From IMG/VR virus record IMGVR_UViG_3300009618_000019: a stretch of 37,089 nucleotides of DNA; one strand, written 5' to 3'. The DNA comes from a virus. A program made the translations under genes and the position numbers. Each line of letters begins with the position of its first letter. Positions within the stretch are counted from its first letter, which is position 1. This document shows, in pieces, positions 669 to 22,760 of this stretch. The notes below the pieces were generated by a model. That model saw only the letters and a program-made list of their open reading frames with translations. It was not told where the DNA came from and made no database searches.

Positions 669-861
669 GAATCCAGAAGAGGCAATCGCAATCTTAATGG
701 ATACACAAGACGAGCCTCTTGACTGCCACAGGCATTGTTCTCATTGGGATACAGAGGGTGAATGTTGCGGGTGTGGAGACGTTCGCACACCCAATCACAG
801 CTATATTCCCCCCGGTCCTGAAGAGGATGAAGAAGCATCATACGAAATAATTCCGCGCTAA
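649..861 (+). CDS. small acidic Cys/His-rich protein (70 aa), possible Zn-binding
   Basis: CHRHCSH and CCGCG motifs; GGAGG just upstream; stop codon abuts the first inverted-repeat arm. Confidence 0.55.
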   Translation: MYGPFPENPEEAIAILMDTQDEPLDCHRHCSHWDTEGECCGCGDVRTPNHSYIPPGPEEDEEASYEIIPR

Positions 862-975
862 CGAGGGGTTTATAGCCTGGTGGGATAGCGGCTGCGACTG
901 TAAGCCGCTTATCGCTGAAGTTGATCGAGGGTCTGTTCAAGGAGCCCTAACACCAGGCTATAAACCCCTCGTTAG
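858..975. repeat. IR element 1: perfect 25-bp inverted repeat containing the 20-bp motif, 68-bp interior
   Basis: 858-882 CTAACGAGGGGTTTATAGCCTGGTG is the exact reverse complement of 951-975 CACCAGGCTATAAACCCCTCGTTAG. Confidence 0.97.
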
Positions 976-2467: not shown

Positions 2468-2760
2468 CTTATACCGCCGAACGTTGTCCAATGTGTGCGG
2501 AAGGAAAAGTCTTTTCTGAGCATACACAACTCTTTCGAGATTGTACCTTTTGTGCAGGACTTGGGACTGTGTTTCCCAGCCACAAATGTGCCTGTGGTGC
2601 TTCACCAACACAAATTACGTCAGATGGTTTTATGTATTGCGGAAAGAAGGTTTGTCTCGACGACCTGAAACGCGATGCAGCAACGTCTGTTGAATCATTA
2701 GGTTATACAGGCTTTGGTTGGCATAGTCCGAGCGGATATGATTCTCGTTACTCGGAATAA
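2431..2760 (+). CDS. Zn-finger-like protein (start uncertain)
   Basis: CPMC, CTFC, CACG and CxxxxC motifs. Confidence 0.55.
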   Translation: MGIIMQATSKGVTYTAERCPMCAEGKVFSEHTQLFRDCTFCAGLGTVFPSHKCACGASPTQITSDGFMYCGKKVCLDDLKRDAATSVESLGYTGFGWHSPSGYDSRYSE

Positions 2761-3317
2761 GATTGGAGGAGCATCGAAGCGACACGCCAAGGGGTTTCCA
2801 GGGTCAGTGCCTGTTGGGGTCAAACATTGGTAACAATGGGACTGGAAGCTACGCTTGAATGAAAAGATGGTTGCAGCAAGTAAAGTCTCTGTTCGATAAT
2901 ACCTATGTACCCTGTTGTGCTTCGGTACTGACGGCGAAAGGTTATTGTCTACATAACATGCTGCTACTGTTCAACCGGACGTTCATTTAGGGCAACCTTT
3001 GAGGATACGCTTTCGCGAGGCTCCTCCAATAATTTTTGTAAGGTACTGCGGTTGTAGCCGCAGTAGTACGAGTCCACCTGACGCTCATCTTCATTAAAGA
3101 TGAGCACACGTCGCGTGGATTTTCGTTTCTGCGCTTGGGACGCTGTTCCAGGTGTAGACAGAGTTGAGGCCAAAGCGGTGCTAACAAGTACCCCAAGTAG
3201 CTACACTACAGGAACAGGACCGGCCAATCCTGTGCTCTCTGAATAAAAGCGCCTGTACTGCCATGGGAGCTAGAAACCTTCTGTCGGAGAAGGGTGATGC
3301 TCCCGCCAGGATTGAGT
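2761..3317 (+). ncRNA. candidate structured non-coding RNA or leader region
   Basis: No + strand ORF of 60 aa or more between 2761 and 3262 in a gene-dense region; hairpins at 3044-3065 (8 bp), 3083-3105 (9 bp) and 3265-3304 (GGGAGC/GCTCCC plus CCTTCT/AGAAGG). Confidence 0.35.
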
Positions 3318-3431
3318 TACACGAGGGGTTTATAGCCTGGTGCGTAGCCTTTGCGATGTTGCAGTCGCCGGGGTCGGAGGTCTGCTTAAACTGCAACCCG
3401 ACCTCCCACCAGGCTATAAACCCCTCGTGTA
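3318..3431. repeat. IR element 2: perfect 25-bp inverted repeat, 64-bp interior
   Basis: 3318-3342 TACACGAGGGGTTTATAGCCTGGTG pairs exactly with 3407-3431. Confidence 0.97.
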
Positions 3432-3447
3432 TAAATTGGAGTAACGA

Positions 3448-4017
3448 ATGTCCGAGTCTTATAAGGCGTTGAGAGTGCCTGTCGCGTTGTTGCAACAGAA
3501 GGTTTATTCGTATGGACAACGCCTGCCAGCATGGACAGGTATTCTTCTTGATGATAAAGGAAAGACTGTTGTCTCCGATGCTTCGCGTGTAACCAGTCCT
3601 TCGGCAGCTCCACTTGTTGTAGCGCGGAAGGTTGAGCCCGATAGCAACTTATTTACAAACACTCCGTGGTTGCGGCGCTTTTTTTTCTTGGTAGACGATA
3701 AGGAGCGTGTGACATGTCGAAGCTGCTTTGAGATTGCAACAACAGGTGAGGAACGCAAGAAACATACTATTTGTTATAAACCAATTGCGCGAACTCTTGC
3801 TTTGATGGTTAAAGACGGCGCTTGTGCGATTTGTGAACAGAACCTTGATCCTGTTGCAGTTGACAAAGATTTTAATGGCGTTCCTGTTTGTAGTGAGAGT
3901 TGCCTTTTTATATGGGATCGAATGCCCCCGGATTCTTTTGATTTCGAGATGGCTGCCGTAAAAGCAGAGCTTGCAGCCGAAGCTGAGCCTAAGAAGGGGA
4001 TTAGTTATGGCCTATGA
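3448..4017 (+). CDS. hypothetical protein with CxxC motifs (189 aa)
   Basis: GGAG RBS directly after IR element 2; CRSC, CAIC and CSESC motifs. Confidence 0.7.
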   Translation: MSESYKALRVPVALLQQKVYSYGQRLPAWTGILLDDKGKTVVSDASRVTSPSAAPLVVARKVEPDSNLFTNTPWLRRFFFLVDDKERVTCRSCFEIATTGEERKKHTICYKPIARTLALMVKDGACAICEQNLDPVAVDKDFNGVPVCSESCLFIWDRMPPDSFDFEMAAVKAELAAEAEPKKGISYGL

Positions 4018-4870
4018 CAAATTTGAGCGCCTCGGTGTATCCCCGATGCCACGTCCTTTTCCAGGAAAATACCCAACGCGGATGCAGATAAAGGCTATCC
4101 GTGGAGATATACCTTTTCAGTATACAGGGAAACCTGTTTCTGTTTTGAAGATGCTTGTTCGGAAACAGTTCATTTGTTGTGGTGGCAATTGCTTCAACTT
4201 GCGAGTTACGGAGTTCGATCAAAATGGAATAATAAGACGCTCGAATGGTGGTAATCTTGAACTGTCTTGCACCTTCGCTGACTTGTATCATCCTGTTCCA
4301 CAGGCGCTTTGGGAAAATCTTGGGCGCGCAACACGCTTGTTGATGATGTTGGATCGCGTGCTTGTGAAGATTGATGGAATTTCTGTTTATACGAACAAGT
4401 TCTGGTTAAACACACCTTGGCTTGAAGGTATTCATCGAATGGCACGAAACGCCATTCATGCACGTCTTGGGAGACAGTGGTTTACCGAAGCGAATGCGTT
4501 AGAACTTTCTCGGCTTTTGGAGGATGGAGAAAACAATCCAACACAGACATGGACTCGACTCGTGCCCGTAGTACCAACGCCTCCTACACCAACAAGACCT
4601 GTTTTACATCGGCGTCCGCGCAATGTTCCACCACCCGAAGCCCAGATCGAACGCCCACAGATAATACCGACGCTTCCGGGGCATTGGACGCTTGAAGCCG
4701 AGATCGGACGCCCGCAGATAATACGGATACCTCTGGGGCATTGGACGCTTGGGGAACATGCTCAGGCGCAACTTCAACAAAATCAACAAGCGGCAGCCAT
4801 ACTGCAACAGCAAAATGGTAATGTCTTACGTGACACTGACGATGATATGATCCCTGAGTATCCTCTATGA
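4007..4870 (+). CDS. hypothetical protein with Pro/Gln-rich C-terminus (probable start ATG 4007)
   Basis: Long ORF overlapping its neighbours; 19-aa internal duplication near the C-terminus. Confidence 0.7.
   Translation: MAYDKFERLGVSPMPRPFPGKYPTRMQIKAIRGDIPFQYTGKPVSVLKMLVRKQFICCGGNCFNLRVTEFDQNGIIRRSNGGNLELSCTFADLYHPVPQALWENLGRATRLLMMLDRVLVKIDGISVYTNKFWLNTPWLEGIHRMARNAIHARLGRQWFTEANALELSRLLEDGENNPTQTWTRLVPVVPTPPTPTRPVLHRRPRNVPPPEAQIERPQIIPTLPGHWTLEAEIGRPQIIRIPLGHWTLGEHAQAQLQQNQQAAAILQQQNGNVLRDTDDDMIPEYPL
4637..4750 (+). repeat. two tandem 57-bp (19-codon) direct repeats
   Basis: 4637-4693 versus 4694-4750, 49/57 identical; encodes EAQIERPQIIPTLPGHWTL and EAEIGRPQIIRIPLGHWTL. Confidence 0.9.
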
Positions 4871-6321
4871 ATCGACAAGCTGTTTTACGCGCCTCGTTGA
4901 TGGGCGAACATTTCGATGCAGATCAAAAGAAGGTTGACTGGGCCTTAAATCACAAGCCCCTTATGTCTCCTTCGATCTTCACGATTACAGGTCGTTACTT
5001 GAACCATTTTTGTGTTGGTTCTGATCCTGAGTTTTGTTTCCGTGATGAATACAACCATCGCGTTGAGGCTGTTGCTTGTGGCCTTAAAGTAGGACTTGCA
5101 GCAGGTGCAGACCAGAATGAACGTTTGGTAGAACTGCGTCCTTGGCCTTCTGTTTCGGTGGTAGAACACATGGCAGGCATTTTAACTGCATTAAGATGGC
5201 TGCATCGTGTTTTTAATCAGGCAACAAGCCGTTATTTGTGGAGAGCAGGCGCTTATTTTGCCGGAGACGGAATAGGTGGTCACATTCATTTTGGTCGAAA
5301 GCGGCCTACCAGGATCGAAGAGGTTGCGGCTTTAGATGGTCTCGCAAACGTTCTCAAGCTAAGTGGGCTGTTTCCTGTGACAGAGTGGGCTCAACGTATG
5401 CGAGGAGACCACTATCACAATGCCCCTTATGGATTGCCGGGAGATTGGCGCGTTCAACTTCATGGTTATGAATACCGAAGTCTGCCTTCATGGCTTCAGT
5501 CGCCAACCGTTGCCTTTATTGCTGTTGCTTCTTCTAAGCTCGCAATACTTGATCCTGCAATTACAACAACTTGGAAGCAGCTTATTTTGACAGAAACGAC
5601 GGCACGTAATCAACTTCGGGGACTTGCGAAGTTGTATAAAGGGCGCGACGATGACGCATACATCCTTTATTACATCCTAACGAGGAATGGTGATGCGCCC
5701 TTCAACGTTGATTATGCTGGTGATTTTGCGCCTAGTTGGGGCATTCCACGAACCGCTGCTCCATTAGAAGCTGACGGGGGTGTGATTTTACCTAGTTGCA
5801 TACAACCCCTTCCTGAAGAGATTAACGAAATGCGGGACCATCTGTTGTTTGGGGTGCCTTTGACATTTACGCTTCATCCCCCGAACTTCAAGACATCAAT
5901 TCCGAATTGTTATAGGTGGCTTCCTGTTTACGTAAATCCAGGGCGTCGATCTGGGTTTGGTGATTTACTCCACAATCTCGTGGGGCATCGCGACTTTGAT
6001 TTGTATTGGGACTATAACAACGACGGGAACTTTCGTATTACAGGAAAGTTAACAACACTTTGGACAACAGCAGAAAAAGAAATGTTGCGGCGATATTATC
6101 CCGGAGTTATCATATCTTCAAGTAGCCGCGATTCTGGTTCAGGCCTTTTAATTCCAAAATGTTTGTGTCAAACAGCCACCATTGCAGGACTCCGCGCAAT
6201 TTTACTTAATTCAGGACTATTCCCGCTTTGGACCGTTGAGACAGTTGAAGCGGATTCTTTCGCAAAATGGTTCGCAACTAAAAAAGAGCTTGTTGCATCA
6301 CGAGTCTGGAGGACTGTGTAA
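4867..6321 (+). CDS. COOH-NH2 ligase type 2 (amidoligase), paralogue 2
   Basis: GSDPEFCF, VELRP, GGHIHFG, YEYRSLPSWL. Confidence 0.85.
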   Translation: MNRQAVLRASLMGEHFDADQKKVDWALNHKPLMSPSIFTITGRYLNHFCVGSDPEFCFRDEYNHRVEAVACGLKVGLAAGADQNERLVELRPWPSVSVVEHMAGILTALRWLHRVFNQATSRYLWRAGAYFAGDGIGGHIHFGRKRPTRIEEVAALDGLANVLKLSGLFPVTEWAQRMRGDHYHNAPYGLPGDWRVQLHGYEYRSLPSWLQSPTVAFIAVASSKLAILDPAITTTWKQLILTETTARNQLRGLAKLYKGRDDDAYILYYILTRNGDAPFNVDYAGDFAPSWGIPRTAAPLEADGGVILPSCIQPLPEEINEMRDHLLFGVPLTFTLHPPNFKTSIPNCYRWLPVYVNPGRRSGFGDLLHNLVGHRDFDLYWDYNNDGNFRITGKLTTLWTTAEKEMLRRYYPGVIISSSSRDSGSGLLIPKCLCQTATIAGLRAILLNSGLFPLWTVETVEADSFAKWFATKKELVASRVWRTV

Positions 6322-7361
6322 TGTGTGGAATCGCTGGAGTACGTAAATTCGGAGCGACTCCGATAACAGGAGAAGAGCTTATACTGTTGCTCTGTTCCAT
6401 TGAGCATCGTGGACAACACGCAACAGGTATTGCTCTGGAAGGCCCAGACGGTATTTTCGTGTTTAAGGCACCTGAACCTGCATGGAAGTTTACTCGATCA
6501 AAGGAATTTGAAGCCTTCCTGAACGAGCACTTAACAGAAAATACGCGCACAGCACTTCTACACACGCGTTGGTACACCGTTGGCAGCCCAGAGGACAACG
6601 AGAATAACCATCCAATGTGGGACGGTGAAACAGCCGTTGTTCACAATGGTTGTATCTCGAACCATCTTACGCTCTTCTATCAAGGTCACTATGAACGTTC
6701 TTGTGAGACCGATTCGGATATTCTTCGAGCAATCATCTCTGAACATGGTATGAATGAGGCTGGAATTCGCGAGTTGAATAAGGTTCAAGGTTCTGCGGCG
6801 ATTGCAGCTATATCTTCACGCTATCCTGACAAGTTGCTCCTTGCTCGAAGTGGTTCGCCTATTGTTTTTGGCTTCACGGATAACGGTGACAAGCTCTACT
6901 GGGCATCTGAAGCGCAGGCGATCCTACGCGCCTGCAAGCCATTCCATCAGGTAAGAGGCGTTTGGGTACAAGATACACGGGCAAATGTAAGTGTTGGAAG
7001 TATGCCCGATAATACGGCTTGGGTCTTTGGGCCAGAAGAGATCGAATTTCATCACGAATTCAAGCTCTGCACCTTCTATCGACAACCCGACTATAAGAAC
7101 GGACGTGAAAGTTACCACTCGAAGATGCGCACTGCCAAGTGGGAAAAGCGCAAGAAGGCCACAACTGGACCAACAACAATCGTTCATGTTCCAACACCAG
7201 CAGGTGTACACAGTCCGCTGTCAGCCGCACCTACAGTTATTGAGAACTTACGTGGGGCTGTAATCAAGTGCCCTGCTTGCGGTCATGGAAACCAAAACGT
7301 TAAAGGTTTTCCCTGGAATCTCTTAGTATGTCATAAGTGCAAAGGTAGTTTGGGGGCGTAA
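6321..7361 (+). CDS. class II (Ntn) glutamine amidotransferase with C-terminal Zn ribbon
   Basis: N-terminal MCGIAG (Cys2 nucleophile), RGQHATG, HTRW, NHP, HNG, TDSD; CPAC...CHKC at the C-terminus; start overlaps the upstream stop (TAATG). Confidence 0.9.
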   Translation: MCGIAGVRKFGATPITGEELILLLCSIEHRGQHATGIALEGPDGIFVFKAPEPAWKFTRSKEFEAFLNEHLTENTRTALLHTRWYTVGSPEDNENNHPMWDGETAVVHNGCISNHLTLFYQGHYERSCETDSDILRAIISEHGMNEAGIRELNKVQGSAAIAAISSRYPDKLLLARSGSPIVFGFTDNGDKLYWASEAQAILRACKPFHQVRGVWVQDTRANVSVGSMPDNTAWVFGPEEIEFHHEFKLCTFYRQPDYKNGRESYHSKMRTAKWEKRKKATTGPTTIVHVPTPAGVHSPLSAAPTVIENLRGAVIKCPACGHGNQNVKGFPWNLLVCHKCKGSLGA

Positions 7362-7364
7362 CCG

Positions 7365-7523
7365 ATGTATACACCGAACTGTAATCCTTTCTTCATGTTG
7401 GGAGAACGTTGTCCTGATTGCGGAGAAGCTGAAAATTGCTATCCTGATAACGAGCTACCCTGCGACTATCCAGAGACACTTGAACCGCGTATTTGTGAGA
7501 TGTGTGGTCACTGGGTCAGTTAA
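7365..7523 (+). CDS. small Cys-rich protein (52 aa), below the ORF-track cutoff
   Basis: ATG 7365 to TAA 7521-7523; CPDC and CEMC motifs; fills the gap between GATase and ATP-grasp genes. Confidence 0.6.
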   Translation: MYTPNCNPFFMLGERCPDCGEAENCYPDNELPCDYPETLEPRICEMCGHWVS

Positions 7524-7533
7524 CGAGGTTATT

Positions 7534-8301
7534 ATGGAATTTCGTGTGGCGAGAGCAGCAAGAGTAACAGGCGAACTGCTTGAAACACTGGTTCGACAAG
7601 CACTTCGCGCGCAGGACATTCCTGAGCCTGATTGCGTAATCTGCTATGGCGTAGGCTATAGTGGGACAAAACCAGCATTGAATGCCAAGTGTTCGACACT
7701 CAACAAGATGCAACAAGGCATCAAGCTCCATGAAAGGCTTCGTGAAGAAGCCCTTCAGATTATCTTGGCGCAGGATGCTATTATGATGCCAGGAAATCCA
7801 CCGCTAATTGGGAGAAACATTCAACACAGTAAGGGACGTGATATACGATATTGCCGAACCTTACGAATGATGAATAAAGCCATCCGGCTTGGCCGTGCTT
7901 ATTTTACTCCTCTCGTAGATTCCGATACAGAATACAGGGTCTGGGTGTATCGCAAGAGAGTTTTATCGGTCTACGAGAAAAGGTTAACTGAACCAGAAAA
8001 CAACACAAAGTTTGGGCGGAATCGCGCGAATGGTTGGACATTTCACGCACTTGGGACGGAGGAAATCCCTGAGAGCGTGCGTATGGTTGCCAAGAAAGCT
8101 GTTGCTGCATTAAACCTGGACTTTGGCGCAGTAGATATTCTCGGCAAGTGGGAAGACGAGGCACACACAACCCTTCATGCAACAGTCTTGGAGGTTAATT
8201 CAGCTCCTGGCGTTGCAAATGAACATCGCAGTTGTATCGTTCGGCTTACCAATCGCATCGTTTGTTGGATCGCGAACGGGTGTCCAGCACGAACAGAATA
8301 G
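7534..8301 (+). CDS. ATP-grasp fold ligase (RimK/glutathione-synthetase-like); probable start ATG 7534
   Basis: EYRVWV, DFGAVDIL, LEVNSAPG motifs; GAGG RBS before 7534. Confidence 0.85.
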   Translation: MEFRVARAARVTGELLETLVRQALRAQDIPEPDCVICYGVGYSGTKPALNAKCSTLNKMQQGIKLHERLREEALQIILAQDAIMMPGNPPLIGRNIQHSKGRDIRYCRTLRMMNKAIRLGRAYFTPLVDSDTEYRVWVYRKRVLSVYEKRLTEPENNTKFGRNRANGWTFHALGTEEIPESVRMVAKKAVAALNLDFGAVDILGKWEDEAHTTLHATVLEVNSAPGVANEHRSCIVRLTNRIVCWIANGCPARTE

Positions 8302-8703
8302 GGGAGGGGTTTGTGGCCTGGTATGGCATGATCGACTGAATTGTCGAAGCCTGCGGTGTGTCTCCTGCGCCAGGCCACAAATAGGTGATTTATGGGTGTT
8401 AAGAAGCACTTCATTCTTACAACTTCAGATGCGATCTTTGTTGGGCCTGCAGTGCATTATGAGTTGCTGAGGCTTTATGGAATTTGGCGTACAAACTACC
8501 GACTCCCTCAACTTGCAGAAATTCAATGGCCTGTAGGGGGCTGGCGAAAGCGTGTTCCCTTTCTATACCAAATCCTACATGCTGCAGTAAGAGATCGCAT
8601 ATATACCCTACGCGAATTACGCGCCCGAAATCCACGCAAGGAACAAGAATATCGGGATGCACTCGGCTGGATTAAGAACCACCCCAGGCCACAAACCCCT
8701 CCC
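8302..8703. repeat. IR element 3: perfect 20-bp inverted repeat with a covaried motif core (GTG/CAC), plus an internal 12-bp copy of the right-arm core
   Basis: 8302-8321 GGGAGGGGTTTGTGGCCTGG pairs with 8684-8703; CCAGGCCACAAA occurs at both 8370-8381 and 8684-8695. Confidence 0.92.
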
Positions 8704-8715
8704 AGAGGTCGCTAG
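8392..8715 (+). CDS. basic hypothetical protein (107 aa) carried inside IR element 3
   Basis: AGGTGA RBS at 8383-8388; the ORF reads through the right arm. Confidence 0.6.
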   Translation: MGVKKHFILTTSDAIFVGPAVHYELLRLYGIWRTNYRLPQLAEIQWPVGGWRKRVPFLYQILHAAVRDRIYTLRELRARNPRKEQEYRDALGWIKNHPRPQTPPRGR

Positions 8716-9078
8716 ATGAGTTTGCGAACTACGCACTTTGCGAAGATAAATGGAGAAGTTGATATTTTCTCTGGGGGTAAGCAAGAGACGTTTCTTCGCT
8801 GCTATGAACACGGTGTTGTTCCGCCAATTCCTTTTTATTCAATCTATCAGAATGGATATACAGCGAGAGACCCTATCTGGACTTGTTTGCGTTGTTTTGA
8901 AAAGTGGACAGGGTTTGCTGTACAGGCGGCACTTGAGAAGAACTGTTGTCATTGTTGCAAAAGTGTAGAGAACATCAAAGCGTGTGAGATGTGTGGAAAG
9001 TTGGTGTGTTTTAACCACCAGCAAGAAGGAGTTTGTGATGATTGCTTTGAAGGAATTCGAGGAGCCGGAGGTAAGTAA
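8716..9078 (+). CDS. Cys-rich Zn-finger protein (120 aa)
   Basis: CLRC, CCHCC, CEMC, CxxH and CDDC motifs. Confidence 0.65.
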   Translation: MSLRTTHFAKINGEVDIFSGGKQETFLRCYEHGVVPPIPFYSIYQNGYTARDPIWTCLRCFEKWTGFAVQAALEKNCCHCCKSVENIKACEMCGKLVCFNHQQEGVCDDCFEGIRGAGGK

Positions 9079-9607
9079 GTCAATTCGGCGGGAACTTGAA
9101 AATTATCTTTATACGCAGTGGGTTAAAAGTGATGAACCTAAACGCGAACTGATTGAGCGGGAACTGCGAGAGCTTTTGATGAATCATGCACAAGCTGTAA
9201 TGTATATAATTTTGCGAAGGGGAGATCGCGACCTATTAACGGAAGCTGTTGATAAAGTTATGGTTAACCTTCCCACTTTTCGCGGAGACAGTTTGTTTAC
9301 CACATGGGTACATCGCATTTTAATGGGTGTGATGTATGATCAAAGACGTATGGAGCGCAAGAGAAAAGAAGTTTCTTTGGATGTTCCTGGTTTTGATTTA
9401 CCAGGTGACTCAAGTCCAGGTGTTGTAGACCTGCTTTTAACTGTTAAACAGCTGTTAACTCCAGCCGATTTTACTATCTTTGAGGAAGTTGCGATTTGGG
9501 GAAAGTCTCACGGGGAAGCTGCAAAGAGCTTGAACATCCCAAAGGCAACAATTACAAGGAAGTGGGATCGCATTTCGAGGACGTTGCGCCATGCCTTTAC
9601 TAAATGA
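9038..9607 (+). CDS. ECF-type RNA polymerase sigma factor (probable start 9038)
   Basis: Region-2-like FRGDSLFTTWVHRILMGVMYDQRR; region-4 HTH-like GKSHGEAAKSLNIPKATITRKWDR; AAGGAG RBS at 9026-9031. Confidence 0.85.
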   Translation: MIALKEFEEPEVSKSIRRELENYLYTQWVKSDEPKRELIERELRELLMNHAQAVMYIILRRGDRDLLTEAVDKVMVNLPTFRGDSLFTTWVHRILMGVMYDQRRMERKRKEVSLDVPGFDLPGDSSPGVVDLLLTVKQLLTPADFTIFEEVAIWGKSHGEAAKSLNIPKATITRKWDRISRTLRHAFTK

Positions 9608-10814
9608 TTTTCTGGTTGGAGCTGATCCAGAATTTATCATTCTCGAAAACGGCCACATGAAGCAGTTTACGGGGCGCGGAGATGTTTATGCGCCTTGGGG
9701 CCTCGATCATGGGAGGTGGGTCATTGAGCCGCACCCCAAGCCAGACATGTCTGTGAGGCAACTGATTCAACACTTGAAGAGTTCTTTCAATGATTTTGCG
9801 ACTGTTGCGCCGTCAGGTAAATGGAGAGCTGGTGCCCACTTTAGTTCACCTGAACGCTCAATTACGTTAGGTGGGCATGTACACATTGATCGACCTACTT
9901 GTACACCTGCACAACGAGATGGTTTGGATTTGTTTACGCGCCACTTGGAGGCTCTGGATATTCTTCCACAAACAGAATGTGTTGAGCGTAGGAAGAGTTC
10001 TTATGGGCAATATGGAGATGTTCGTTGCGAGCATGGTCATTTTGAGTATCGAACATTGGCTTCGTGGTTGTTTTCGCAGCGCGTAACAAAACTGTGTTTG
10101 ATCGGAGCGAAGCTAATTATGGTGGACCCTGAAGCTCCGAGAGCAGCTCTGGGTGCGCCTGCCCAGGCTGCTGTTCCAAAGTTGAAGGCATTCTTTGAAA
10201 GGTTTCAGAATCGTGATGAAGATGTTGACTGGATTTTAGGTGCCGGAGTGTTGGGGAGAAAACTTAATGTCAAGCCTGATCGAGACTTGCGCGATGTGTG
10301 GAAGGTTGAGCCTGTAAAAGAGAATCCGAGATGGAAAGAAGAAAAGGCAAGACTAGCACCGCCCCCGCAACCACAGGTACGTCGCAATATGGTATATAAC
10401 GTACCCGAACGCAGACCTTATATTTTTGAAGTGGAGGGCTATTACGTTTCCTTCAGAGTTGGTGTTGATAGAATTCCTACACAAGATCAACTTGAGGCTA
10501 TTCGCGAGAATTGCCGTCGAAGAACCGCTGCGCTTGTAGTAGGGGATTGGCAGCCAGGTCGCGATTCGCTTTTTGTTTGGGGTATATTAGGACAGTCTTG
10601 GGGGAGCATATCCATCCCTAACAAAATAATCAGAACAACTGTCGATGGTACACGTTATAAATGGATGGTCATCGAGAACTGGGAGATCGATGATCGTGTA
10701 CGTGAAATTTTAAGAAATTATGTACACGAGGGCAATACAACAGCAACAAACCAAGTTGTTTTACGTGAAGGTTTGCTCTTTCAACCTTTGGGTCCACAAG
10801 GCGAACACGATTAA
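9591..10814 (+). CDS. COOH-NH2 ligase type 2 (amidoligase), paralogue 3, with unrelated C-terminal extension
   Basis: GADPEF, IEPHP, GGHVHID, FEYRTLASWL. Confidence 0.8.
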   Translation: MPLLNDFLVGADPEFIILENGHMKQFTGRGDVYAPWGLDHGRWVIEPHPKPDMSVRQLIQHLKSSFNDFATVAPSGKWRAGAHFSSPERSITLGGHVHIDRPTCTPAQRDGLDLFTRHLEALDILPQTECVERRKSSYGQYGDVRCEHGHFEYRTLASWLFSQRVTKLCLIGAKLIMVDPEAPRAALGAPAQAAVPKLKAFFERFQNRDEDVDWILGAGVLGRKLNVKPDRDLRDVWKVEPVKENPRWKEEKARLAPPPQPQVRRNMVYNVPERRPYIFEVEGYYVSFRVGVDRIPTQDQLEAIRENCRRRTAALVVGDWQPGRDSLFVWGILGQSWGSISIPNKIIRTTVDGTRYKWMVIENWEIDDRVREILRNYVHEGNTTATNQVVLREGLLFQPLGPQGEHD

Positions 10815-10830
10815 ATTGGAGGTTTTTTAT

Positions 10831-10871
10831 CGAAAAGTGAGTCAAAAAGCTCTCTTTTACGTCTAATATAG
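10831..10871 (+). promoter_or_regulatory. candidate ECF-sigma promoter, copy 1
   Basis: CGAAAAGTGAGTCAAAAA-N11-CGTCTAATATAG, intergenic and upstream of the recombination genes; same boxes and spacing at 12913. Confidence 0.7.
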
Positions 10872-10879
10872 GAGAAGCG

Positions 10880-11128
10880 TTGGAAACAATACAAGTTGAA
10901 AAAGGCCAAGTTGTACATTTGACTTGGTACGATTCCTCAAGTCTCCACGGTTGGGTTTATGAAGATGTTGCCGCAACGCCCAAAGAGATTGAATCTGTTG
11001 GGTTTATTGTTGCCGTTGGAGAAGATGCAATTGCCGTTACCTCTGGTCGCTCTGATTCGGGGGGTGTGATTAACCCTTTAACTATTCCTATATGTTGTAT
11101 CCGCAAATATAAAGTCTTGGAAGTATAG
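10880..11128 (+). CDS. small phage hypothetical protein (82 aa)
   Basis: GGAG RBS and TTG start; W-D..W..SVGF..IP pattern resembling a common small phage family. Confidence 0.65.
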   Translation: METIQVEKGQVVHLTWYDSSSLHGWVYEDVAATPKEIESVGFIVAVGEDAIAVTSGRSDSGGVINPLTIPICCIRKYKVLEV

Positions 11129-11131
11129 ATA

Positions 11132-11899
11132 TTGCTTAAATACGATCGTTCCCTCCTCACATTCAATCCCAACAATCATGGTCATTACTTTGATGGGAAG
11201 CGACTCCTCGGAGTTACTACAGCACTTTCTGCCATCTCTAAAGGCGACGGCCTCATTCAATGGGCTGTTAATCAGGCCTGTGATTACGCGCGGGCGAACG
11301 TTAACTTTGATACAAGCGAAGCAGCTCCTGATTATGGCCGCTCTTTTTTGTATGTAGATGATTGGGATACCGTTCTCCTTGGCGCAAAGTATGCTTGGAA
11401 AGCAAGACGTGACGAAGCTGCATCTATTGGTACAGCTGCCCATGATTGGGTGGAACGCTACCTTAAAGGTGAAGACCCTGAATGGCCCACAGACCCCGCT
11501 GCTTGTAAGTCGGCAGAAGCTGCACTAGAGTGGATTAAATCTGTCAAGTGGGAAACAATTGCAATTGAGCATCAAATCTATATTCCAGAGTTGGCTGTTG
11601 GTGGTATCTGCGATTGGTTCGCAAGAATTAACGGCGTACTCGCGGTGCCCGACTGGAAAACTAGCAAATCTCTGCACTCCACTTACGCGTATCAAACCGC
11701 CGCGTATCTGCGAGCCTTGGAGGACGAGTTCGATGAAAAGATTCCTCATCGCTGGCTTGTTCGGATAGACAAAGAAACAGGAATCGTTGAGCCTCGTTTC
11801 CTTCCCGAAGATACAATTGCGAAGGATTACCGCGCCTTTGAGGGTGCTGTAAACATTTATAGACGCGAGGCTGAGGTTAAGCGCGAATGGCAAATGTAA
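11132..11899 (+). CDS. PD-(D/E)xK exonuclease (RecB/Cas4-like)
   Basis: GVTT, GTAAH, IEHQI, GGICD, PDWKTS, YQTAAY motifs. Confidence 0.85.
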   Translation: MLKYDRSLLTFNPNNHGHYFDGKRLLGVTTALSAISKGDGLIQWAVNQACDYARANVNFDTSEAAPDYGRSFLYVDDWDTVLLGAKYAWKARRDEAASIGTAAHDWVERYLKGEDPEWPTDPAACKSAEAALEWIKSVKWETIAIEHQIYIPELAVGGICDWFARINGVLAVPDWKTSKSLHSTYAYQTAAYLRALEDEFDEKIPHRWLVRIDKETGIVEPRFLPEDTIAKDYRAFEGAVNIYRREAEVKREWQM

Positions 11900-12141
11900 A
11901 AGAATGGGTGGTTATCCTTTCGGTTAATACCGATTACATGTATAACGTGCTGGCGCGAACGCCCGAAGAGGCCGAGAATATCGCAGAGGATCGCTTCTGC
12001 GATGGTGAAGAAGGAACGCCAATAGGTGAACCTGAACTTTTATCCTCTGAAGCACTTCCAACCGACAGCCAAACAGAAGCTGAATCTTTCGATCCTGAAT
12101 CAACCTACGGTGGAGTTGACTGGGACCCAATTATAGACTAG
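11887..12141 (+). CDS. small acidic hypothetical protein (84 aa)
   Basis: ORF in the operon, overlapping the upstream stop. Confidence 0.6.
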   Translation: MANVKEWVVILSVNTDYMYNVLARTPEEAENIAEDRFCDGEEGTPIGEPELLSSEALPTDSQTEAESFDPESTYGGVDWDPIID

Positions 12142-12147
12142 AGGAAT

Positions 12148-12900
12148 ATGGCACTAAAAGATTTGTTAGTTAAAGATACAAAACCCAAGGGAATCTTAAT
12201 GTCTGTTGAGGGCTTGCAGAAGTGTGGCAAGACCGAGCTTGGACTAACCATGCCTGGTAACCTGTTCATTCTAAACCTGAACTGGGGCTTGGTCGGCGTT
12301 TACGAGAAACATATCGAAGCCGGTAAGCAGATTTACGTTCAGGACATCCAGATTCCCTACTCAAAAGACCTTCCAGGTGCTCCCTTCACAATTCTGGCGA
12401 CAGCGGCTGCTGAGGCATGGCGTAAGGCAATTCTGTCTTTGTTAGACGCGATTAAGGAGCCTTCCATATCAAGTATCTTTATTGATACTGGAAGCGAGCT
12501 TTGGGATTTGCTAAGAGTCGCACGTTTGGGTAAGCTCAACCAGGTACTACCAATTCAGTACTCGTCTGTTAATGCCGAGTTTCGCCAGTTGCTACAAATC
12601 CTGCTTACTTGTAAGAAGAATGTCCTACTTGCGCACAAGGTAAAGCCTGAGTATGTTAACGACCAAAAGACCAACCGCTTCGAGCGGGCAGGCTTTAGTG
12701 ACATCAGCTTCGACGTACAAGTAGAGCTTCGTGCGGACCGTGATATAAAGAAGGAAGGTCTGGACCAGTTCTCTCTAACAGTTGTGGACTGTCGCGCAAA
12801 CAAGGATTTGAAGGACACTGTGCTAGTGGGAAAGGACTGCAACTTCCTCAAGGTTGTGAGTCTTATGTATCCGAAGACGGTGGAGGGGGATTGGCTTTAG
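12148..12900 (+). CDS. P-loop ATPase, Sak4/AAA_24-like recombination protein
   Basis: Walker A GLQKCGKT, Walker B FIDT; located between an exonuclease and an SSB-like gene. Confidence 0.8.
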   Translation: MALKDLLVKDTKPKGILMSVEGLQKCGKTELGLTMPGNLFILNLNWGLVGVYEKHIEAGKQIYVQDIQIPYSKDLPGAPFTILATAAAEAWRKAILSLLDAIKEPSISSIFIDTGSELWDLLRVARLGKLNQVLPIQYSSVNAEFRQLLQILLTCKKNVLLAHKVKPEYVNDQKTNRFERAGFSDISFDVQVELRADRDIKKEGLDQFSLTVVDCRANKDLKDTVLVGKDCNFLKVVSLMYPKTVEGDWL

Positions 12901-12912
12901 AAAATAAATTCC

Positions 12913-12953
12913 CGAAAAGTGAGTCAAAAACCTGTTTCTAGCGTCTAATATAG
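12913..12953 (+). promoter_or_regulatory. candidate ECF-sigma promoter, copy 2
   Basis: CGAAAAGTGAGTCAAAAA-N11-CGTCTAATATAG, upstream of the non-coding RNA cluster. Confidence 0.7.
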
Positions 12954-13061
12954 TGTAAAACAGGAATAAACCATTTCGCACGAAGTTCCTTCCGTAAGGT
13001 GCAGCCTCAACCACGTTCTCATGGCCGCTGCTTAGATAGGGATAGAGAGGATGCGATACTT

Positions 13062-13183
13062 GAGGGGTTTATAGCCTGGTGGTTATGCTGCGGCGTTAAT
13101 AAATCCGAGCAACGCTTCAGAGGGGTTGCGCCTCGTGTGCCTGGACGCCCCAACAGCGATAACTACCCTGCTATAGACCCCTT
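13062..13183. repeat. IR element 4: perfect left motif, degenerate right arm (15/20), 82-bp interior
   Basis: 13062-13081 perfect motif; 13164-13183 TACCCTGCTATAGACCCCTT; interior ends pair (GTTAT-GCTG / CAGC-G-ATAAC). Confidence 0.85.
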
Positions 13184-13224
13184 TCTGTCTCTAAAGACTC
13201 CAGGTAGCCTGCGCAGGTGAACTT

Positions 13225-13294
13225 GGTTGGGTAGTGGCTCGGCGTAAAGCGTACGTCTATACTAATGTATAGAGCTAAGGAGCCTTTGGCAACC
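13225..13294 (+). ncRNA. candidate structured RNA domain
   Basis: Nested stems GGTTG/CAACC, GGCTC/GAGCC and TCTATAC/GTATAGA. Confidence 0.35.
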
Positions 13295-13332
13295 CATTGA
13301 AAAATGCACACGCCGTTGGAAGACGGCAAAAC

Positions 13333-13417
13333 GGGGTGGTCGTCTAACGATAGGACACGCTCATCATGGATTTGTCTGTGAGATGCGATACATTGGGTTT
13401 AACTCCCAACCACCCCC
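13333..13417 (+). tRNA. tRNA-like gene with an extended anticodon arm and no canonical anticodon loop
   Basis: Acceptor GGGGTGG/CCACCCC, D arm GTCT..GGAC, T arm TTGGG-TTTAACT-CCCAA; 30-nt hairpin in place of the 17-nt anticodon arm; no encoded CCA. Confidence 0.6.
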
Positions 13418-13499
13418 TCTAAGCTTGCATTAGCGTTTGTTGGGGCTATTGCATTTACCAGCCGGGGTTCCCGGCCTAAACTAAAAGGAAAATCAAAGT

Positions 13500-13925
13500 A
13501 TGAGTTGGAATGAAATCGATTTGCAGGGTGTAAGCGCGGATATGGAGTTGGTGCCAGAGGGTAAATATGTTTTCACCCTGCTCCCTGGCGCGAAATATTC
13601 GCAGTGGAACCCTAACAAGATTGAAGTTGGGGCAAAGGTTGACGAGGGCGAGTTCGCCGGACGTGTACTCTATTTCTCGTATGGCGATCCAGAGAAGGTT
13701 CCCACAATGGTTGGGGCTTTCAAGCGCCTTGAGATTGCTTTGACCAAGAACACTGGCGTCGCCATTGAGTCTGGTCAGGACCCGTGTGAGTATCTTAACA
13801 GTGTCGCGGGGGGTAAGTTTATCTCCGACATCAAACATCGCAGCTTCACGAACTCGGAGGGTGAGACTCAGACTAAGGCTGAGGTTGCCATCTTCAAGGT
13901 GAAGGCGATCCCTGCGGAGAAGTAA
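13500..13925 (+). CDS. putative single-stranded DNA-binding protein (DUF669-like)
   Basis: N-terminal LVPEGKYVF pattern; AAGGA RBS; position in the recombination/replication module. Confidence 0.6.
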   Translation: MSWNEIDLQGVSADMELVPEGKYVFTLLPGAKYSQWNPNKIEVGAKVDEGEFAGRVLYFSYGDPEKVPTMVGAFKRLEIALTKNTGVAIESGQDPCEYLNSVAGGKFISDIKHRSFTNSEGETQTKAEVAIFKVKAIPAEK

Positions 13926-13927
13926 GC

Positions 13928-14071
13928 ATGTCTCCGTATAAAAGCAAGGCACAAGCGGCCTATCTGCACATACATGCCAAGGAACTTGGCATCAAGACAA
14001 AGGAATGGGACGAGGCAACTAAGAAGGAAGGCAAGAAGCTTCCAGAGCACGTCTCCGACAAGAAGAAGTAG
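13928..14071 (+). CDS. small basic protein (47 aa, MSPYKSKAQAAYLH...KLPEHV)
   Basis: Translated manually; resembles the common small phage MP(F/Y)KSKAQ family. Confidence 0.65.
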   Translation: MSPYKSKAQAAYLHIHAKELGIKTKEWDEATKKEGKKLPEHVSDKKK

Positions 14072-14078
14072 TTTGCAG

Positions 14079-14152
14079 GTTCTGTTCATCTAATTGTGGC
14101 AAGCCTGGACCCTTCACGGTCCAGAATGCAGGTTCGAGACCTGCACAGAACT
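14079..14152 (+). tRNA. tRNA-like gene (Glu-like) with aberrant anticodon loop
   Basis: Acceptor GTTCTGT/ACAGAAC, T arm GCAGG-TTCGAGA-CCTGC, anticodon arm CTGGACC-CTTCAC-GGTCCAG (6-nt loop, or 8 nt if the inner C-G opens); weak D stem; no CCA. Confidence 0.65.
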
Positions 14153-14173
14153 TGTTTATAGAAAGAGTGCGTC

Positions 14174-14398
14174 ATGTCGAAAATTCTACACAATCGTGCG
14201 CAATGTAAGTTGTGTAAGGATATTGTCGAATCGAAGTTTCGCTGGGATTTTGTAACTTGTTCTTGTGGAGCTTTGTCTGTAGATGGGGGACATGACTATT
14301 TGCGGCGCTGTGGAAACCTGGATGCTATTGAAGAACTTTCCGAATCCACAGATGAACCAGAACCTTCCCAGAAGGGAATTAAACACAAACAGAGGTAA
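14174..14398 (+). CDS. small Zn-ribbon phage protein
   Basis: NRAQCKLC...FVTCSCG..SVDGG motif, common in phages. Confidence 0.75.
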   Translation: MSKILHNRAQCKLCKDIVESKFRWDFVTCSCGALSVDGGHDYLRRCGNLDAIEELSESTDEPEPSQKGIKHKQR

Positions 14399-14402
14399 TT
14401 GG

Positions 14403-14570: not shown

Positions 14571-14571
14571 T

Positions 14572-14631
14572 CCCCTTTAGGTGAAAGCCAGCTTCATGCT
14601 GTGCGTTCCGAAAGGAACCTAGCCTATGGGG
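14572..14631 (+). ncRNA. small multi-stem RNA element with a GAAA tetraloop
   Basis: CCCC/GGGG and TAGG/CCTA closing stem, CAGC-TTCAT-GCTG, GTTCC-GAAA-GGAAC. Confidence 0.4.
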
Positions 14632-14638
14632 GCTCATT

Positions 14639-14817: not shown

Positions 14818-14837
14818 CACATTGAATTGGAGCTTTG

Positions 14838-21006: not shown

Positions 21007-21133
21007 CGATAGAGGCCCTCTTAACCAAGCCTGGGGCTTGGACATCTCAGAAGCTGCGGCGATAGCCCTGGGAATGAAGAAAGCAGGTATCGCTAAACTT
21101 GCAGTAGAAGTTCAATGTGAGAGGGGTTTATAG
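20843..21133 (+). CDS. RlpA-like double-psi beta-barrel lytic transglycosylase (probable start ATG 20843)
   Basis: SWYG, TASG, TAASRTLPFG, INDRGP, LDISEAAA; overlaps DUF5664 by 164 nt in another frame; its stop codon lies in a motif copy. Confidence 0.75.
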   Translation: MIVSWYGRKAEGRTTASGQRFRWRTLTAASRTLPFGTRLRLTFPTTGKSVIVSINDRGPLNQAWGLDISEAAAIALGMKKAGIAKLAVEVQCERGL

Positions 21134-21140
21134 CCTGGGG
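21121..21140 (+). repeat. IR element 6, left arm (19/20 motif)
   Basis: GAGGGGTTTATAGCCTGGGG; partner at 22712-22731. Confidence 0.92.
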
Positions 21141-21146
21141 GTTGCT

Positions 21147-21626
21147 GTGAAACAAAGTGAGAAGTGGGATAGACGTTATCTCGAACTGGCTAAGCATGTT
21201 GCCACATGGAGCAAGGACCCATCTACTAAGGTAGGGGCTGTTCTAGTTAACTACGAACAGAAGAAAGAGTTCGTAGGCTATAACGGCTTTCCAGAAGGCG
21301 TTCAGGATTCACCAGAACGCTACAACGACCGCGAGATCAAATACAAGTTTGTTGTCCACGCAGAAGTTAACGCCATCCTTAAAGCAGGCGGCTATGCACG
21401 GGGCGCAACTTTGTATATCTATCCCAGCTTTTCATTGCCCCCGATCTGTAACGAGTGTGCCAAAGTTGCAATACAAAGCGGCATTAAAGAAGTCGTTGGT
21501 TATTCGCCAGATGCGAACGATCCGCGAGTAAAGCGTTGGGCCGAAGCTATTCTAGTTTCTAAGAGTATGTTCGAGGAAGCAGGCGTGTCCTGGAGAGCGA
21601 TTGATGAAACAAACAGAGATTCATAA
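21147..21626 (+). CDS. dCMP deaminase family protein (probable GTG start 21147)
   Basis: SKDPSTKVGA, GYNGFP, HAEVN, PICNEC Zn-binding motifs. Confidence 0.9.
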   Translation: MKQSEKWDRRYLELAKHVATWSKDPSTKVGAVLVNYEQKKEFVGYNGFPEGVQDSPERYNDREIKYKFVVHAEVNAILKAGGYARGATLYIYPSFSLPPICNECAKVAIQSGIKEVVGYSPDANDPRVKRWAEAILVSKSMFEEAGVSWRAIDETNRDS

Positions 21627-22464
21627 GCTGCAGGCTGCGTTCGAGCGTTACTTTACGCTTACTACAACACGCCCAACAGCAGTTCGTTATTGTAAATCAC
21701 TTACGTCTTTCTTTTCCCGCTTCCCCGACAAGGCGCGCCCTGAAGAATTTACACGCCGTGATGTTGAAGACTTTCGCATCCTACGGCTTCGTGAGGGCGT
21801 AAGTCCTCGAACAATCAACTATGAACTTGGAGTCTTACGTCAATTTTGGGCGTGGCTTCAACAGATGGAGCTTGTTACATGGAATCCGGTTACACAAGTC
21901 AAACGGTTGCGCGAGCGGGAGTCCTCCAAGACATCATTAAGCGTACAGCAGCAATTGGAGCTACAGAAGGGGTGTTACTGCTGGGCGGACCGTGCACTGG
22001 TTGGTTTAGCATTGACTACTGGGTTGAGGGGGGAGACCCTTGCTTCCCTAGAGAAATGCGAGATCGACTTCGTGAGGCAGTGTCTAACTATTCCAGCGAC
22101 GAAGATGAAGACGGGAAGGAACCACGAGATACCTCTGCCGCCTTGGGTTCTGAAATTGTTGGAGGAAGCGCCTGATGGTCGAATCTTTGCGGATTACGCA
22201 AAAGACACCAACTCAGTTCGTTATAGATGGGGCTGTATATGCAGACGAGCCGGAGTCCCTACGAAAGGAATCAGGACGGCTCGTAGAACGTTTGCTACAA
22301 CTTTGCTTAGAAGCGGAGCCGACCTTAAACTCGTGCAGGATTTACTTGGTCACAGAAACATTGCGACCACTAGTAGATACCTCACCCCTGCAGATAGCCA
22401 AACAACCAGAGATGCTGTAAACCGCCTACCTATCCCGGAGGAATACCTTGAGCGATCTGCGTGA
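21601..22464 (+). CDS. tyrosine recombinase/integrase (XerC/D-like)
   Basis: N-terminal core-binding region (SPRTIN), TGLR, ARRTFAT, LLGH, TTSRY; the HxxR box reads RTAR. Confidence 0.92.
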   Translation: MMKQTEIHKLQAAFERYFTLTTTRPTAVRYCKSLTSFFSRFPDKARPEEFTRRDVEDFRILRLREGVSPRTINYELGVLRQFWAWLQQMELVTWNPVTQVKRLRERESSKTSLSVQQQLELQKGCYCWADRALVGLALTTGLRGETLASLEKCEIDFVRQCLTIPATKMKTGRNHEIPLPPWVLKLLEEAPDGRIFADYAKDTNSVRYRWGCICRRAGVPTKGIRTARRTFATTLLRSGADLKLVQDLLGHRNIATTSRYLTPADSQTTRDAVNRLPIPEEYLERSA

Positions 22465-22711
22465 AATGATGGATGCAGTCCGTGAAGTCTTCATGGGCGC
22501 GGAGTGTATGGGCTATAATTGCGAGAAGGGTTTTTGCATCTATTGGCCTACTGACATAAGCCCTATCATCGCAACAGGTCAACATCCAAGAAAAGCTTGG
22601 CGCAATGCTTATAAGCTGGTTAAGGGGAAGAACAAAAAAGCCCTAGAGAAACTTAAAAAGTCTCTACTAGAGCAGGAAGTTAAGAAGGGTGGATATGGTC
22701 CAGGTGCATAA
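22448..22711 (+). CDS. hypothetical protein (87 aa)
   Basis: GGAGG RBS and TTG start; stop codon abuts the motif at 22712. Confidence 0.6.
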   Translation: MSDLREMMDAVREVFMGAECMGYNCEKGFCIYWPTDISPIIATGQHPRKAWRNAYKLVKGKNKKALEKLKKSLLEQEVKKGGYGPGA

Positions 22712-22731
22712 CACCAGGCTATAAACCCCTC
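22712..22731 (-). repeat. IR element 6, right arm (perfect motif, reverse orientation)
   Basis: CACCAGGCTATAAACCCCTC. Confidence 0.95.
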
Positions 22732-22732
22732 G

Positions 22733-22760
22733 AAAAAAGGCCCGGCTTTTAGACCGGGCC
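22733..22760 (-). terminator. intrinsic terminator of the virion operon
   Basis: On the minus strand GGCCCGG-TCTAAAAG-CCGGGCC-TTTTTT, directly after the last minus-strand gene at the convergence point. Confidence 0.85.

Follow-up and report, generated by a model that had tools for sequence, protein, structure and literature searches.

The two copies of a 12-base direct repeat that flank most of a small early gene in an uncultured phage were shown to be two right-arm copies of a phage-wide inverted-repeat motif, and not a target-site duplication. The locus that carries them is very probably not the footprint of a cassette integration. We favor, as the probable explanation, a resident gene lying between the arms of a cis-acting structure, likely formed in the mRNA, whose single left arm can pair with either of two partners.

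The DNA analyzed, a stretch of 37,089 nt from the IMG/VR virus record IMGVR_UViG_3300009618_000019 (hereafter, the window), comes from a podophage of the phiEco32-like type. Among its products are a sigma factor of its own, three COOH-NH2 ligases, a GATase, and an ATP-grasp enzyme, as well as a UDG-PolA fusion, an SU10-type adaptor, and a 287-aa tyrosine recombinase.

Layout of the locus

The preliminary description of this DNA had started from the direct repeat CCAGGCCACAAA, and the repeat was readily recovered, with two exact copies on the + strand at 8370-8381 and 8684-8695. As had been described, these copies bracket the ribosome-binding site (RBS) AGGTGA (8383-8388) and nearly all of an ORF of 107 aa, and the formal removal of 314 nt recreates a short-class element, for which the coordinates, the left arm, the interior, and the right arm all hold. 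The complement of CCAGGCCACAAA is found inside the left arm at 8310-8321. Both copies carry the central CAC variant that had been pointed out, and the three sites at 8310-8321, 8370-8381, and 8684-8695 are the only ones within the window to do so. The features of the locus are as follows.

8302..8326, + strand: left arm GGGAGGGGTTTGTGGCCTGG with its inner extension (core left arm, 8302-8321), adjoining the TAG stop codon (8299-8301) of the ATP-grasp gene
8322..8369, + strand: interior of 48 nt with two small hairpins, including TCGAC/GTCGA, based on the fold and on alignment A5
8370..8381, + strand: proximal truncated right arm CCAGGCCACAAA, which pairs with 8310-8321 and has the RBS AGGTGA directly 3' of it
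8392..8715, + strand: ORF107, coding for a small basic early protein of 107 aa (ATG at 8392), the resident gene between the arms
8679..8703, + strand: distal full right arm (core 8684-8703), within codons 97-104 of ORF107
8716..9078, + strand: gene for a Cys-rich (Zn-finger) protein of 120 aa (ATG at 8716), with its RBS GAGG (8705-8708) just 3' of the distal arm

The distal arm lies 13 nt 5' of the ATG of the next gene and is complementary to the left arm, the segments 8302-8326 and 8679-8703 showing 25 nt of complementarity at 92%. The gene that follows the Cys-rich gene encodes the phage sigma factor.

The arms belong to a dispersed motif

Searching the window with the CCAGGCCACAAA-type pattern and allowing up to two mismatches gave 16 matches against 3.7 expected, a count reached by none of 100 shuffles. 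The underlying motif consists of a left arm, GAGGGGTTT-NNN-GCCTGG(TG), and a right arm, (CA)CCAGGC-NNN-AAACCCCTC. With at most one mismatch, 16 arms were found in the window and 6 to 23 in each of five related IMG/VR contigs (G001-G005), and a control pattern read backwards returned no arms. Fifteen of the 18 positions are conserved across phages that share only 30-70% protein identity, with some 16-23 uses of the motif in each genome. Because the two CCAGGCCACAAA copies belong to this family of 16 arms, the 12 bases that they share are expected, and only their common CAC triplet is special. The CAC triplet itself recurs in the family, in the distal arm of lineage L035, at 29277 and 61286 in G001, and at 14351 in G002.

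Short pairs, with 8-150 nt between the two arms, occupy the gap from the upstream stop codon to the next RBS. These short pairs have perfect stems of 20-30 bp and hairpin-rich interiors, and their predicted folds range from -60 to -93 kcal/mol. The interiors of the different copies are mostly unrelated, but some paralogous interiors share a GGTsTGTCTCC box. Other arms are far apart or solitary. Three further features of the window illustrate the family.

858..975, + strand: short-class member 1, with a perfect 25-bp stem, a 68-nt interior, and a fold of -70.7 kcal/mol
3318..3431, + strand: short-class member 2 (element 2), based on the inverted repeat and the fold, with no counterpart at the orthologous site of G001
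21119..22733, + strand: long arm pair (left arm 21119-21138, right arm 22714-22733) enclosing a dCMP deaminase, the Xer-like tyrosine recombinase, and a small ORF

The long pair is also present in G001, where it encloses the recombinase without the deaminase. Solitary sense arms are located just 5' of late genes, and a pair of arms 2.4-2.7 kb apart lies inside late coding regions of the window, G001, G003, and G005. Outside of these phages, an operon flanked by genuine arms was found in a mobile element of Acidobacteriaceae that is otherwise unrelated. A right arm in the sense orientation was followed within 45 nt by an ORF start for 41 of 78 arms, compared with 21 of 78 in the opposite reading.

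The pairing between arms is maintained by covariation. The central triplet differs from element to element (TAT, TGT, CCC, CAC, and others), yet in 9 of 14 short pairs the triplets of the two arms are fully complementary, a count that none of 20,000 shuffles reached. The stem extensions are likewise element-specific and complementary (for example, CTAAC/GTTAG and TACAC/GTGTA), and the orthologous element 4 carries TAT/ATA in the window and GTG/CAC in G001.

The family appears undescribed, although its kind, repeated intergenic stem-loops of phage operons, is familiar; no published element matches it. No match was obtained in Rfam at gathering thresholds; at E<=1, the sole match was a sub-threshold mir-28 on element 2, with 39.4 bits against a gathering score of 64. 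A REP-like origin from the host was discarded, candidate host MAGs holding the motif one to four times at most. The TATAAA seen in some arms was likewise rejected as part of a sigma-70 promoter, since the CCC, CAC, and other triplet variants abolish it. A promoter and terminator scan of positions 1-15500 returned no promoter-like or U-tract terminator site within the elements, and the seven promoter-like sites detected in this region were fewer than the 18.3 found in shuffles. No systematic target-site duplication was found around 19 short elements; an ATTG(G)AGT repeat around element 2 looks isolated.

ORF107 is a conserved resident gene

A profile search placed 26 representative clusters in the ORF107 family at E<1e-3, and the homologues are syntenic down to about 30% identity. 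Alignment A3 of the family revealed the motifs MGVK, GPxAY, GGWRKK, LRxLKxRNP, and YR, followed by a tail with the pattern P-R/K-x-Q/K-T-P. ORF107 is a real, conserved, and resident early gene. Its AlphaFold (AF2) model has a pLDDT of 90.2, and fold searches with this model gave no convincing PDB match (best Foldseek E-value, 1.1; best VIA-align Z, 5.3). Nothing was found for ORF107 or for the 120-aa gene in Pfam, PHROGs, NCBIfam, or the ESM Atlas, and word-based protein searches retrieved near-identical copies only. We also considered ORF107 as an HUH/RAYT-like protein and rejected this assignment, the HUH motif being absent from the invariant residues.

The cultured phages gave no DNA match to the window and no ORF107 homologue, and their ATP-grasp matches were only distant; they therefore do not provide an outgroup in which an empty site could be defined. 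An alignment scan with the sigma factor in metagenome_contigs and viral_contigs recovered only G001 or its twin and one truncated contig. The predicted empty junction and circle junction had no exact match in viral_contigs, a collection that does not include the phage of the window, so that this negative carries no information.

The locus in divergent lineages

Seven lineages with DNA available were compared: the window, G001/L020, L035, L036, L037, L161, and L163. All seven share the gene order ligase, GATase, ATP-grasp, (sometimes a small ORF), ORF107 homologue, Cys-rich gene of about 120-135 aa, sigma factor, and ligase; two further contigs without DNA showed a matching gene order around the ORF107 homologue. 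In all seven, a right arm lies within the last codons of the ORF. The AAACCCCT block of this arm is read in a constant frame, as K/Q-T-P. The CCAGGC block is read as P-R-P when the centre has 3 nt and as P-Q-A when it has 2 nt, with its bases unchanged. As these bases are constant despite being read in two frames, the constraint acts on the nucleotides.

Six of the seven lineages (the window, G001/L020, L035, L037, L161, and L163) also have a left arm 5' of the ORF107 homologue. It adjoins the ATG in L037, includes the TTG start codon in L161, and stops 8 nt 5' of the GTG in L163, and none of these three lineages has the interior or the proximal copy. The window, G001, and L035 have a hairpin module of 60-110 nt between the left arm and the ORF start, and these are the only lineages with a proximal partner, which is different in each of them. 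The window kept the inner 12 nt of the arm, G001 kept about 14 nt with a bulge, and L035 has a degenerate full-length arm with two G.U pairs. In each case, the centre of the proximal arm matches that of its own left arm: GTG/CAC in the window, GGG/CCC in G001, and TAT/ATA in L035.

The interior box GGTGTGTCTCC, located at 8355-8365 in the window, was also detected in L035, in G001, and in complete short elements elsewhere, and the interiors align (A5) with the complete short elements G001_49554 and G002_9565. The proximal copy therefore represents the right arm, in shortened form, of a hairpin module of the short class. We infer that, in the window and G001, it is a right arm lacking its outer CCCCTC half, situated beside the RBS of the ORF.

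Four lineages (L036, L037, L161, and L163) have the ORF and the distal arm without the proximal duplicate. The ORF probably predates the proximal copy. The ATP-grasp tree resolved only the joining of the window with G001 (92/95) and the outside position of L161 and L163; this tree and the ORF107 tree did not resolve gain from loss of the proximal module. In either case, neither the gene nor its distal arm is a recent arrival.

The distal arm also shows signs of pairing with the left arm across the ORF. L161 has a unique compensatory pair, GCTTGG/CCAAGC, that joins the left and distal arms, and the position changed is invariant in the other arms listed with at most one mismatch. The centre of the left-distal duplex is mismatched in G001, L035, L037, and L163; full distal pairing is not conserved, a point against the RNA reading.

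The locus in near-identical strains

A protein identical to the downstream protein P0027 is encoded on at least 23 contigs from independent samples. Where DNA was available, these strain contigs align colinearly with the window (99.9% identity). Among those extending as far as the ATP-grasp gene, the distance from its stop codon to the gene at 8716 is 414 nt without exception. This count was based on nine contigs and three more (ERZ27249783, ERZ27250039, and SRR7027918), which we state as at least 11 near-identical strain contigs. An empty allele, which would have a spacing of 100 nt, was not found among them.

The preliminary description had proposed that a 314-bp cassette integrated at the motif and duplicated 12 bp of it, and had suggested looking for the empty site in related phages. 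This proposal was not supported. We found no empty site in the seven lineages with DNA or in the strain contigs, and the ORF has the same position in all relatives. The outcome named there as fatal to the idea is, as far as the assemblies allow, the one observed: every relative has the ORF, four of them do so without the proximal duplicate, and no empty-site allele was seen.

Two SNPs bear on the pairing of the arms. The first, 8690 C>T, is present in three of nine strain contigs (L164, L169, and L172) and is confirmed by the longer L175, for a total of three or four strains. It turns the distal triplet into TAC, replaces Pro100 with Leu, and breaks the 12/12 identity of the two copies; on the + strand, a G-C pair with the left arm becomes G.U. 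The second, 13164 T>C, found in three strains, changes a G.U pair of the element 4 stem, again on the + strand, into G-C.

Proposed pairing of one left arm with two partners

The preliminary description had also offered a fallback, namely that one left arm has two mutually exclusive RNA partners, and this is the reading that the comparative data favor. In three lineages, the left arm covaries with its proximal partner; in L161, it has changed together with the distal one; and the two SNPs exchange G-C and G.U pairs. Pairing maintained by covariation and a sense-strand duplex of about two turns between cistrons, two features expected of a cis-acting RNA stem, are both present. In the global minimum free energy fold of 8296-8725, the left arm is paired to its distal partner (-145.6 kcal/mol; z, -2.35). 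Folded locally, 8296-8391 reaches -37.3 kcal/mol, and the local hairpins compare favorably with shuffles in each lineage that has one (z of -2.96 in the window, -3.83 in G001, and -2.73 in L035). Wobble pairs across the divergent elements number about seven on the sense strand versus three on the antisense strand, too small a count to show a strand bias. The antisense wobble pairs at 35362 in the window and 12030 in G002 were counted against a role in RNA.

Based on these data, we propose a cis-acting role for the arms as a structure in nucleic acid, the polycistronic early mRNA being its most likely site. During transcription, the left arm would first pair locally with its proximal partner, over 12-14 bp, leaving the RBS of ORF107 free. 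Alternatively, it could form a long-range duplex of 20-25 bp with the distal arm, in which case the ORF107 cistron would be looped out. Such a duplex would lie 1-2 nt from the RBS of the Zn-finger and sigma genes, and might serve as an RNase III-type processing or translation-coupling signal; its length would make it a plausible substrate of RNase III type. Since the left arm begins directly after the upstream stop codon, a terminating ribosome would be expected to melt it. The equivalent duplex of L037 and L161 would occlude the RBS or start codon of the ORF itself.

That such alternative pairing serves a function at the RNA level is putative, and we consider the case for it to be nearly balanced. 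A fuller proposal can be put forward only tentatively. According to it, the arms would constitute an undescribed family of cis-acting elements in an uncultured phiEco32-like clade, probably with Acidobacteriota hosts; the left arm would alternate between its local and distal partners, the RNA would serve as a switch or processing signal that controls ORF107 and the Zn-finger and sigma regulators, and the hairpin modules would have spread as units. The motif draws attention because its perfect stems sit exactly between stop codons and the next RBS and, at this locus, bracket a conserved regulator-adjacent gene with two competing partners.

Other explanations

A serious rival, though one that we consider unlikely, is a motif acting at the DNA level. 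The arms would be protein-binding or recombination sites, or short homologies that promote module shuffling in the manner of PeSLs; the direct copies would be neighboring sites, and the hairpins a by-product of inverted site pairs. The two conserved blocks are about 10.5 bp, or one helical turn, apart with a free central triplet, as might be expected of such sites, and the solitary arms, the arms conserved in late coding regions, and those around the mobile-element operon are also consistent with this explanation. So are the presence of the whole of element 2 in the window and its absence from G001, and the indels between the window and G001 that adjoin arms at 8302, 14816, and 21138. However, many indels between these two genomes are away from arms, and intergenic breakpoints are expected in any case. 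A protein site alone would leave unexplained both the covariation of the triplets and the complementary stem extensions outside of the core. Moreover, the elements have no sigma-70-like promoters in or near them and no U-tract terminators, so that the anatomy of a PeSL is not matched; they are without flanking target-site duplications, and the arm motif is not a host repeat and has no Rfam match at gathering thresholds. Neither ORF107 nor the recombinase segment changes orientation, so there is no sign of inversion.

It is less probable still that the locus is a decaying remnant. The proximal 12-mer would then be a non-functional right-arm stump left by a deletion near the RBS of ORF107, its identity with the distal arm would be due to coincidence or hitch-hiking, and only a generic short hairpin, or nothing, would be functional. 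The missing outer CCCCTC half in the window and G001 and the degenerate proximal arm of L035 fit with decay, as do the spacing from the arm to the ATG, which is 22 nt here compared with about 38-39 nt in other elements, and the recurrence of CAC as a triplet variant. On the other hand, the part retained has kept its pairing with the left arm in three lineages, where the triplet covaries in a lineage-specific manner, and the local hairpins of the window, G001, and L035 fold better than shuffles.

The explanation that we find hardest to credit is that the tyrosine recombinase of the phage integrated a 314-bp ORF cassette, devoid of a promoter, into the right arm of an already present short-class element, whose 12-bp core was duplicated, the cassette remaining excisable as a circle. 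A perfect 12-nt direct repeat around the RBS and most of the ORF, a canonical short element restored by the deletion, an arm-flanked tyrosine recombinase gene, and a variable content of arm-adjacent genes (G001 lacks both the deaminase at 21147-21626 and the RNase H gene at 14835-15242) speak for it. Against it, the ORF is at the same position in every strain contig and in 7/7 lineages with DNA, the ORF and distal arm occur without the proximal copy in four lineages, and the two right-arm copies of G001 differ in their central triplet. The boundaries do not fit either, as the last seven codons of the ORF, including the stop codon (20 nt, 8696-8715), fall outside of the proposed cassette, and the distal arm consists of the ORF's own codons. 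In contrast to an attC site, the distal arm lacks its own left-arm partner: for the arm at 8684-8703, none was found between 8322 and 8683 with up to four mismatches. In addition, a 3-bp variable centre is too short for the overlap region of a tyrosine recombinase. The 287-aa recombinase (21601-22464) is Xer-like, scoring 51.8 bits on the integron-integrase model TIGR02249 against a cut-off of 265, and its best matches are Xer-like and all below cut-offs. Integron-like cassette capture in a lytic-type phage would have been remarkable, but the evidence says otherwise.

Comparison with known systems

The arms share several traits with integron attC sites, including imperfect inverted repeats, conserved boxes, a variable centre, and a hairpin fold. 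As with integron cassettes, a tyrosine recombinase is encoded nearby, and a direct repeat of core bases is found at both ends of the ORF. However, the recombinase is not of the IntI type, the motif (CCAGGC-NNN-AAACCCCTC) lacks the GTTRRRY core, and no complete attC accompanies the ORF. Unlike integron cassettes, the gene is invariant between relatives, and one arm is inside the coding sequence. The repeat does not resemble a target duplication of a transposon or MITE either, given that the motif is multi-copy and that the ORF-bearing lineages L036, L037, L161, and L163 are without the proximal copy.

REPINs are hairpin-forming inverted doublets of REP sequences that are mobilized by RAYT transposases. 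The arm elements resemble them in size (about 100-130 nt), in having two inverted arms of 20-25 nt with covarying stems, in their intergenic dispersal, and in the presence or absence of whole elements between relatives. They differ from REPINs in that their interiors are mostly unrelated, no HUH/RAYT gene was found, and they are not a repeat of the host genome. They are also set precisely between a stop codon and the next RBS.

The PeSL cassettes of T4-type phages combine a sigma-70 early promoter with a terminator stem-loop, and PeSL-flanked ORFs differ between near-identical phages (Arbiol et al. 2010, PMC2839356; Comeau et al. 2014, PMC4122927). Like PeSLs, the arms form a dispersed conserved motif that is intergenic and found in an early, gene-variable region of the phage; direct copies flank a small ORF, and recombination between them could excise a mini-circle. 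In contrast to PeSLs, the arm elements are without promoter-like hexamers or U-tracts, and ORF107 is fixed in all of the lineages and strains examined.

The closest functional analogues may instead be T7-type RNase III sites, the stems that flank rRNAs, and long-distance pairing of the MS2 type. The R sites of the T7 early mRNA and the flanking stems of 16S and 23S rRNA are long-range or intergenic stems processed by RNase III. As with the T7 R sites, the arms would place related stems repeatedly between the cistrons of a polycistronic phage transcript. Like RNase III stems, they would form duplexes of about 20-25 bp, with a stem just 5' of the next RBS, and some arm pairs would enclose a whole gene, as the rRNA flanking stems do. 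However, the arm stems are perfect, whereas those of T7 contain internal loops; the constraint on the 15 conserved positions goes well beyond what RNase III needs, and, unlike RNase III stems, solitary arms and arms inside coding regions exist. If the arms do act as an mRNA processing or coupling signal, they would represent a T7-R-site-like system in an uncultured phage clade.

In the RNA phages MS2 and Q-beta, long-distance RNA interactions couple translation. The arms would be comparable in that a sequence adjacent to an RBS could pair with a distant coding sequence and be opened by the passage of a ribosome. They differ in belonging to a DNA phage and in being reused many times per genome. 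The likeness to MS2 and Q-beta extends to L037 and L161, in which the left arm holds the RBS or start codon of the ORF107 homologue.

ORF107 family and its surroundings

8392-8715 (+), ORF107, a conserved 107-aa gene
8302-8326, left arm upstream of ORF107
8679-8703, distal right arm

The family represented by ORF107 gave a confident AlphaFold model (pLDDT 90), with a predicted fold order of strand-strand-helix-helix-strand-helix. No convincing match was found in the PDB, and no family was found in Pfam, PHROG or NCBIfam. The neighbours of the gene are constant: as it invariably adjoins the genes for a Cys-rich protein and a phage sigma factor, ORF107 may be a regulator.

On the other side of the gene, a small hydrophobic ORF of about 46-50 aa separates the left arm from the ATP-grasp gene in the related phage contig G001 and in a further contig, L035 (loci: 4823-5185 in L020, the contig paired with G001, and 2727-2867 in L035; tail ...YWxASAVLISxVTF). 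This ORF is missing from the window, which indicates that the outer edge of the ORF107 left arm there is a putative deletion junction.

Short elements in the window and in related phages

3318-3431, short element 2
13062-13183, element 4
14639-14838, element 5
14835-15242, RNase H gene

Element 2, one of the hairpin-forming short elements, is absent from the orthologous G001 site (reverse complement, ~24918-24930), where CAGGATT leads straight into the RBS and ATG of the gene that also follows the element in the window; relatives have therefore either acquired or lost the hairpin module as a whole. Element 2 is flanked, in the window only, by a direct repeat, ATTG(G)AGT.

The right arm of element 4 is degenerate, with G.U pairs on the + strand, and its conserved interior (TAATAAATCC..GCAACGCTT) holds a partial left arm. 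Counterparts occur in G001 (reverse complement, 35614 to ~35750) and in L119 (7172-7448), a contig of 7.5 kb that is assigned to a deltaproteobacterial MAG. The central triplet covaries between the window and G001, from TAT/ATA to GTG/CAC.

Element 5 contains an ORF of 62-64 aa, predicted by gene callers in strain contigs, whose ATG is within the left arm (GGAGGGGTTTTATG), whose reading frame crosses the right arm and whose TGA stop overlaps the ATG of the RNase H gene. In G001 the orthologous element has an interior of just 36 nt, and the RNase H gene is missing.

Arms around and within other genes

21119-22733, arm pair around an Xer-like recombinase gene
27431-27450 and 30159-30178, arms in the coding sequence of minus-strand late genes

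In the window, the recombinase arm pair also takes in a gene for dCMP deaminase. In G001 it does not, the left arm adjoining the recombinase start, and the deaminase gene of another relative (G002) carries a right arm within its own 3' end instead.

Of the two late-gene arms, one is located in the Pro-rich linker of a 1986-aa protein, the other in the 5' part of a 439-aa gene. The pair is kept in G001, G003 and G005 at a spacing of 2.4-2.7 kb, with mismatched central triplets, and is accounted for by none of the explanations so far.

Finally, a genuine left and right arm were found at 4470-4491 and 6605-6628 of an Acidobacteriaceae MAG contig (CAWJRQ010000007.1), enclosing a minus-strand operon (an AAA_25 protein and small ORFs) of a chromosomal mobile element. 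These arms hint at an Acidobacteriota host for the phage, and also at some factor common to more than this phage clade. The mobile element, which has no other relation to the phage, additionally encodes a serine recombinase and a tyrosine integrase.
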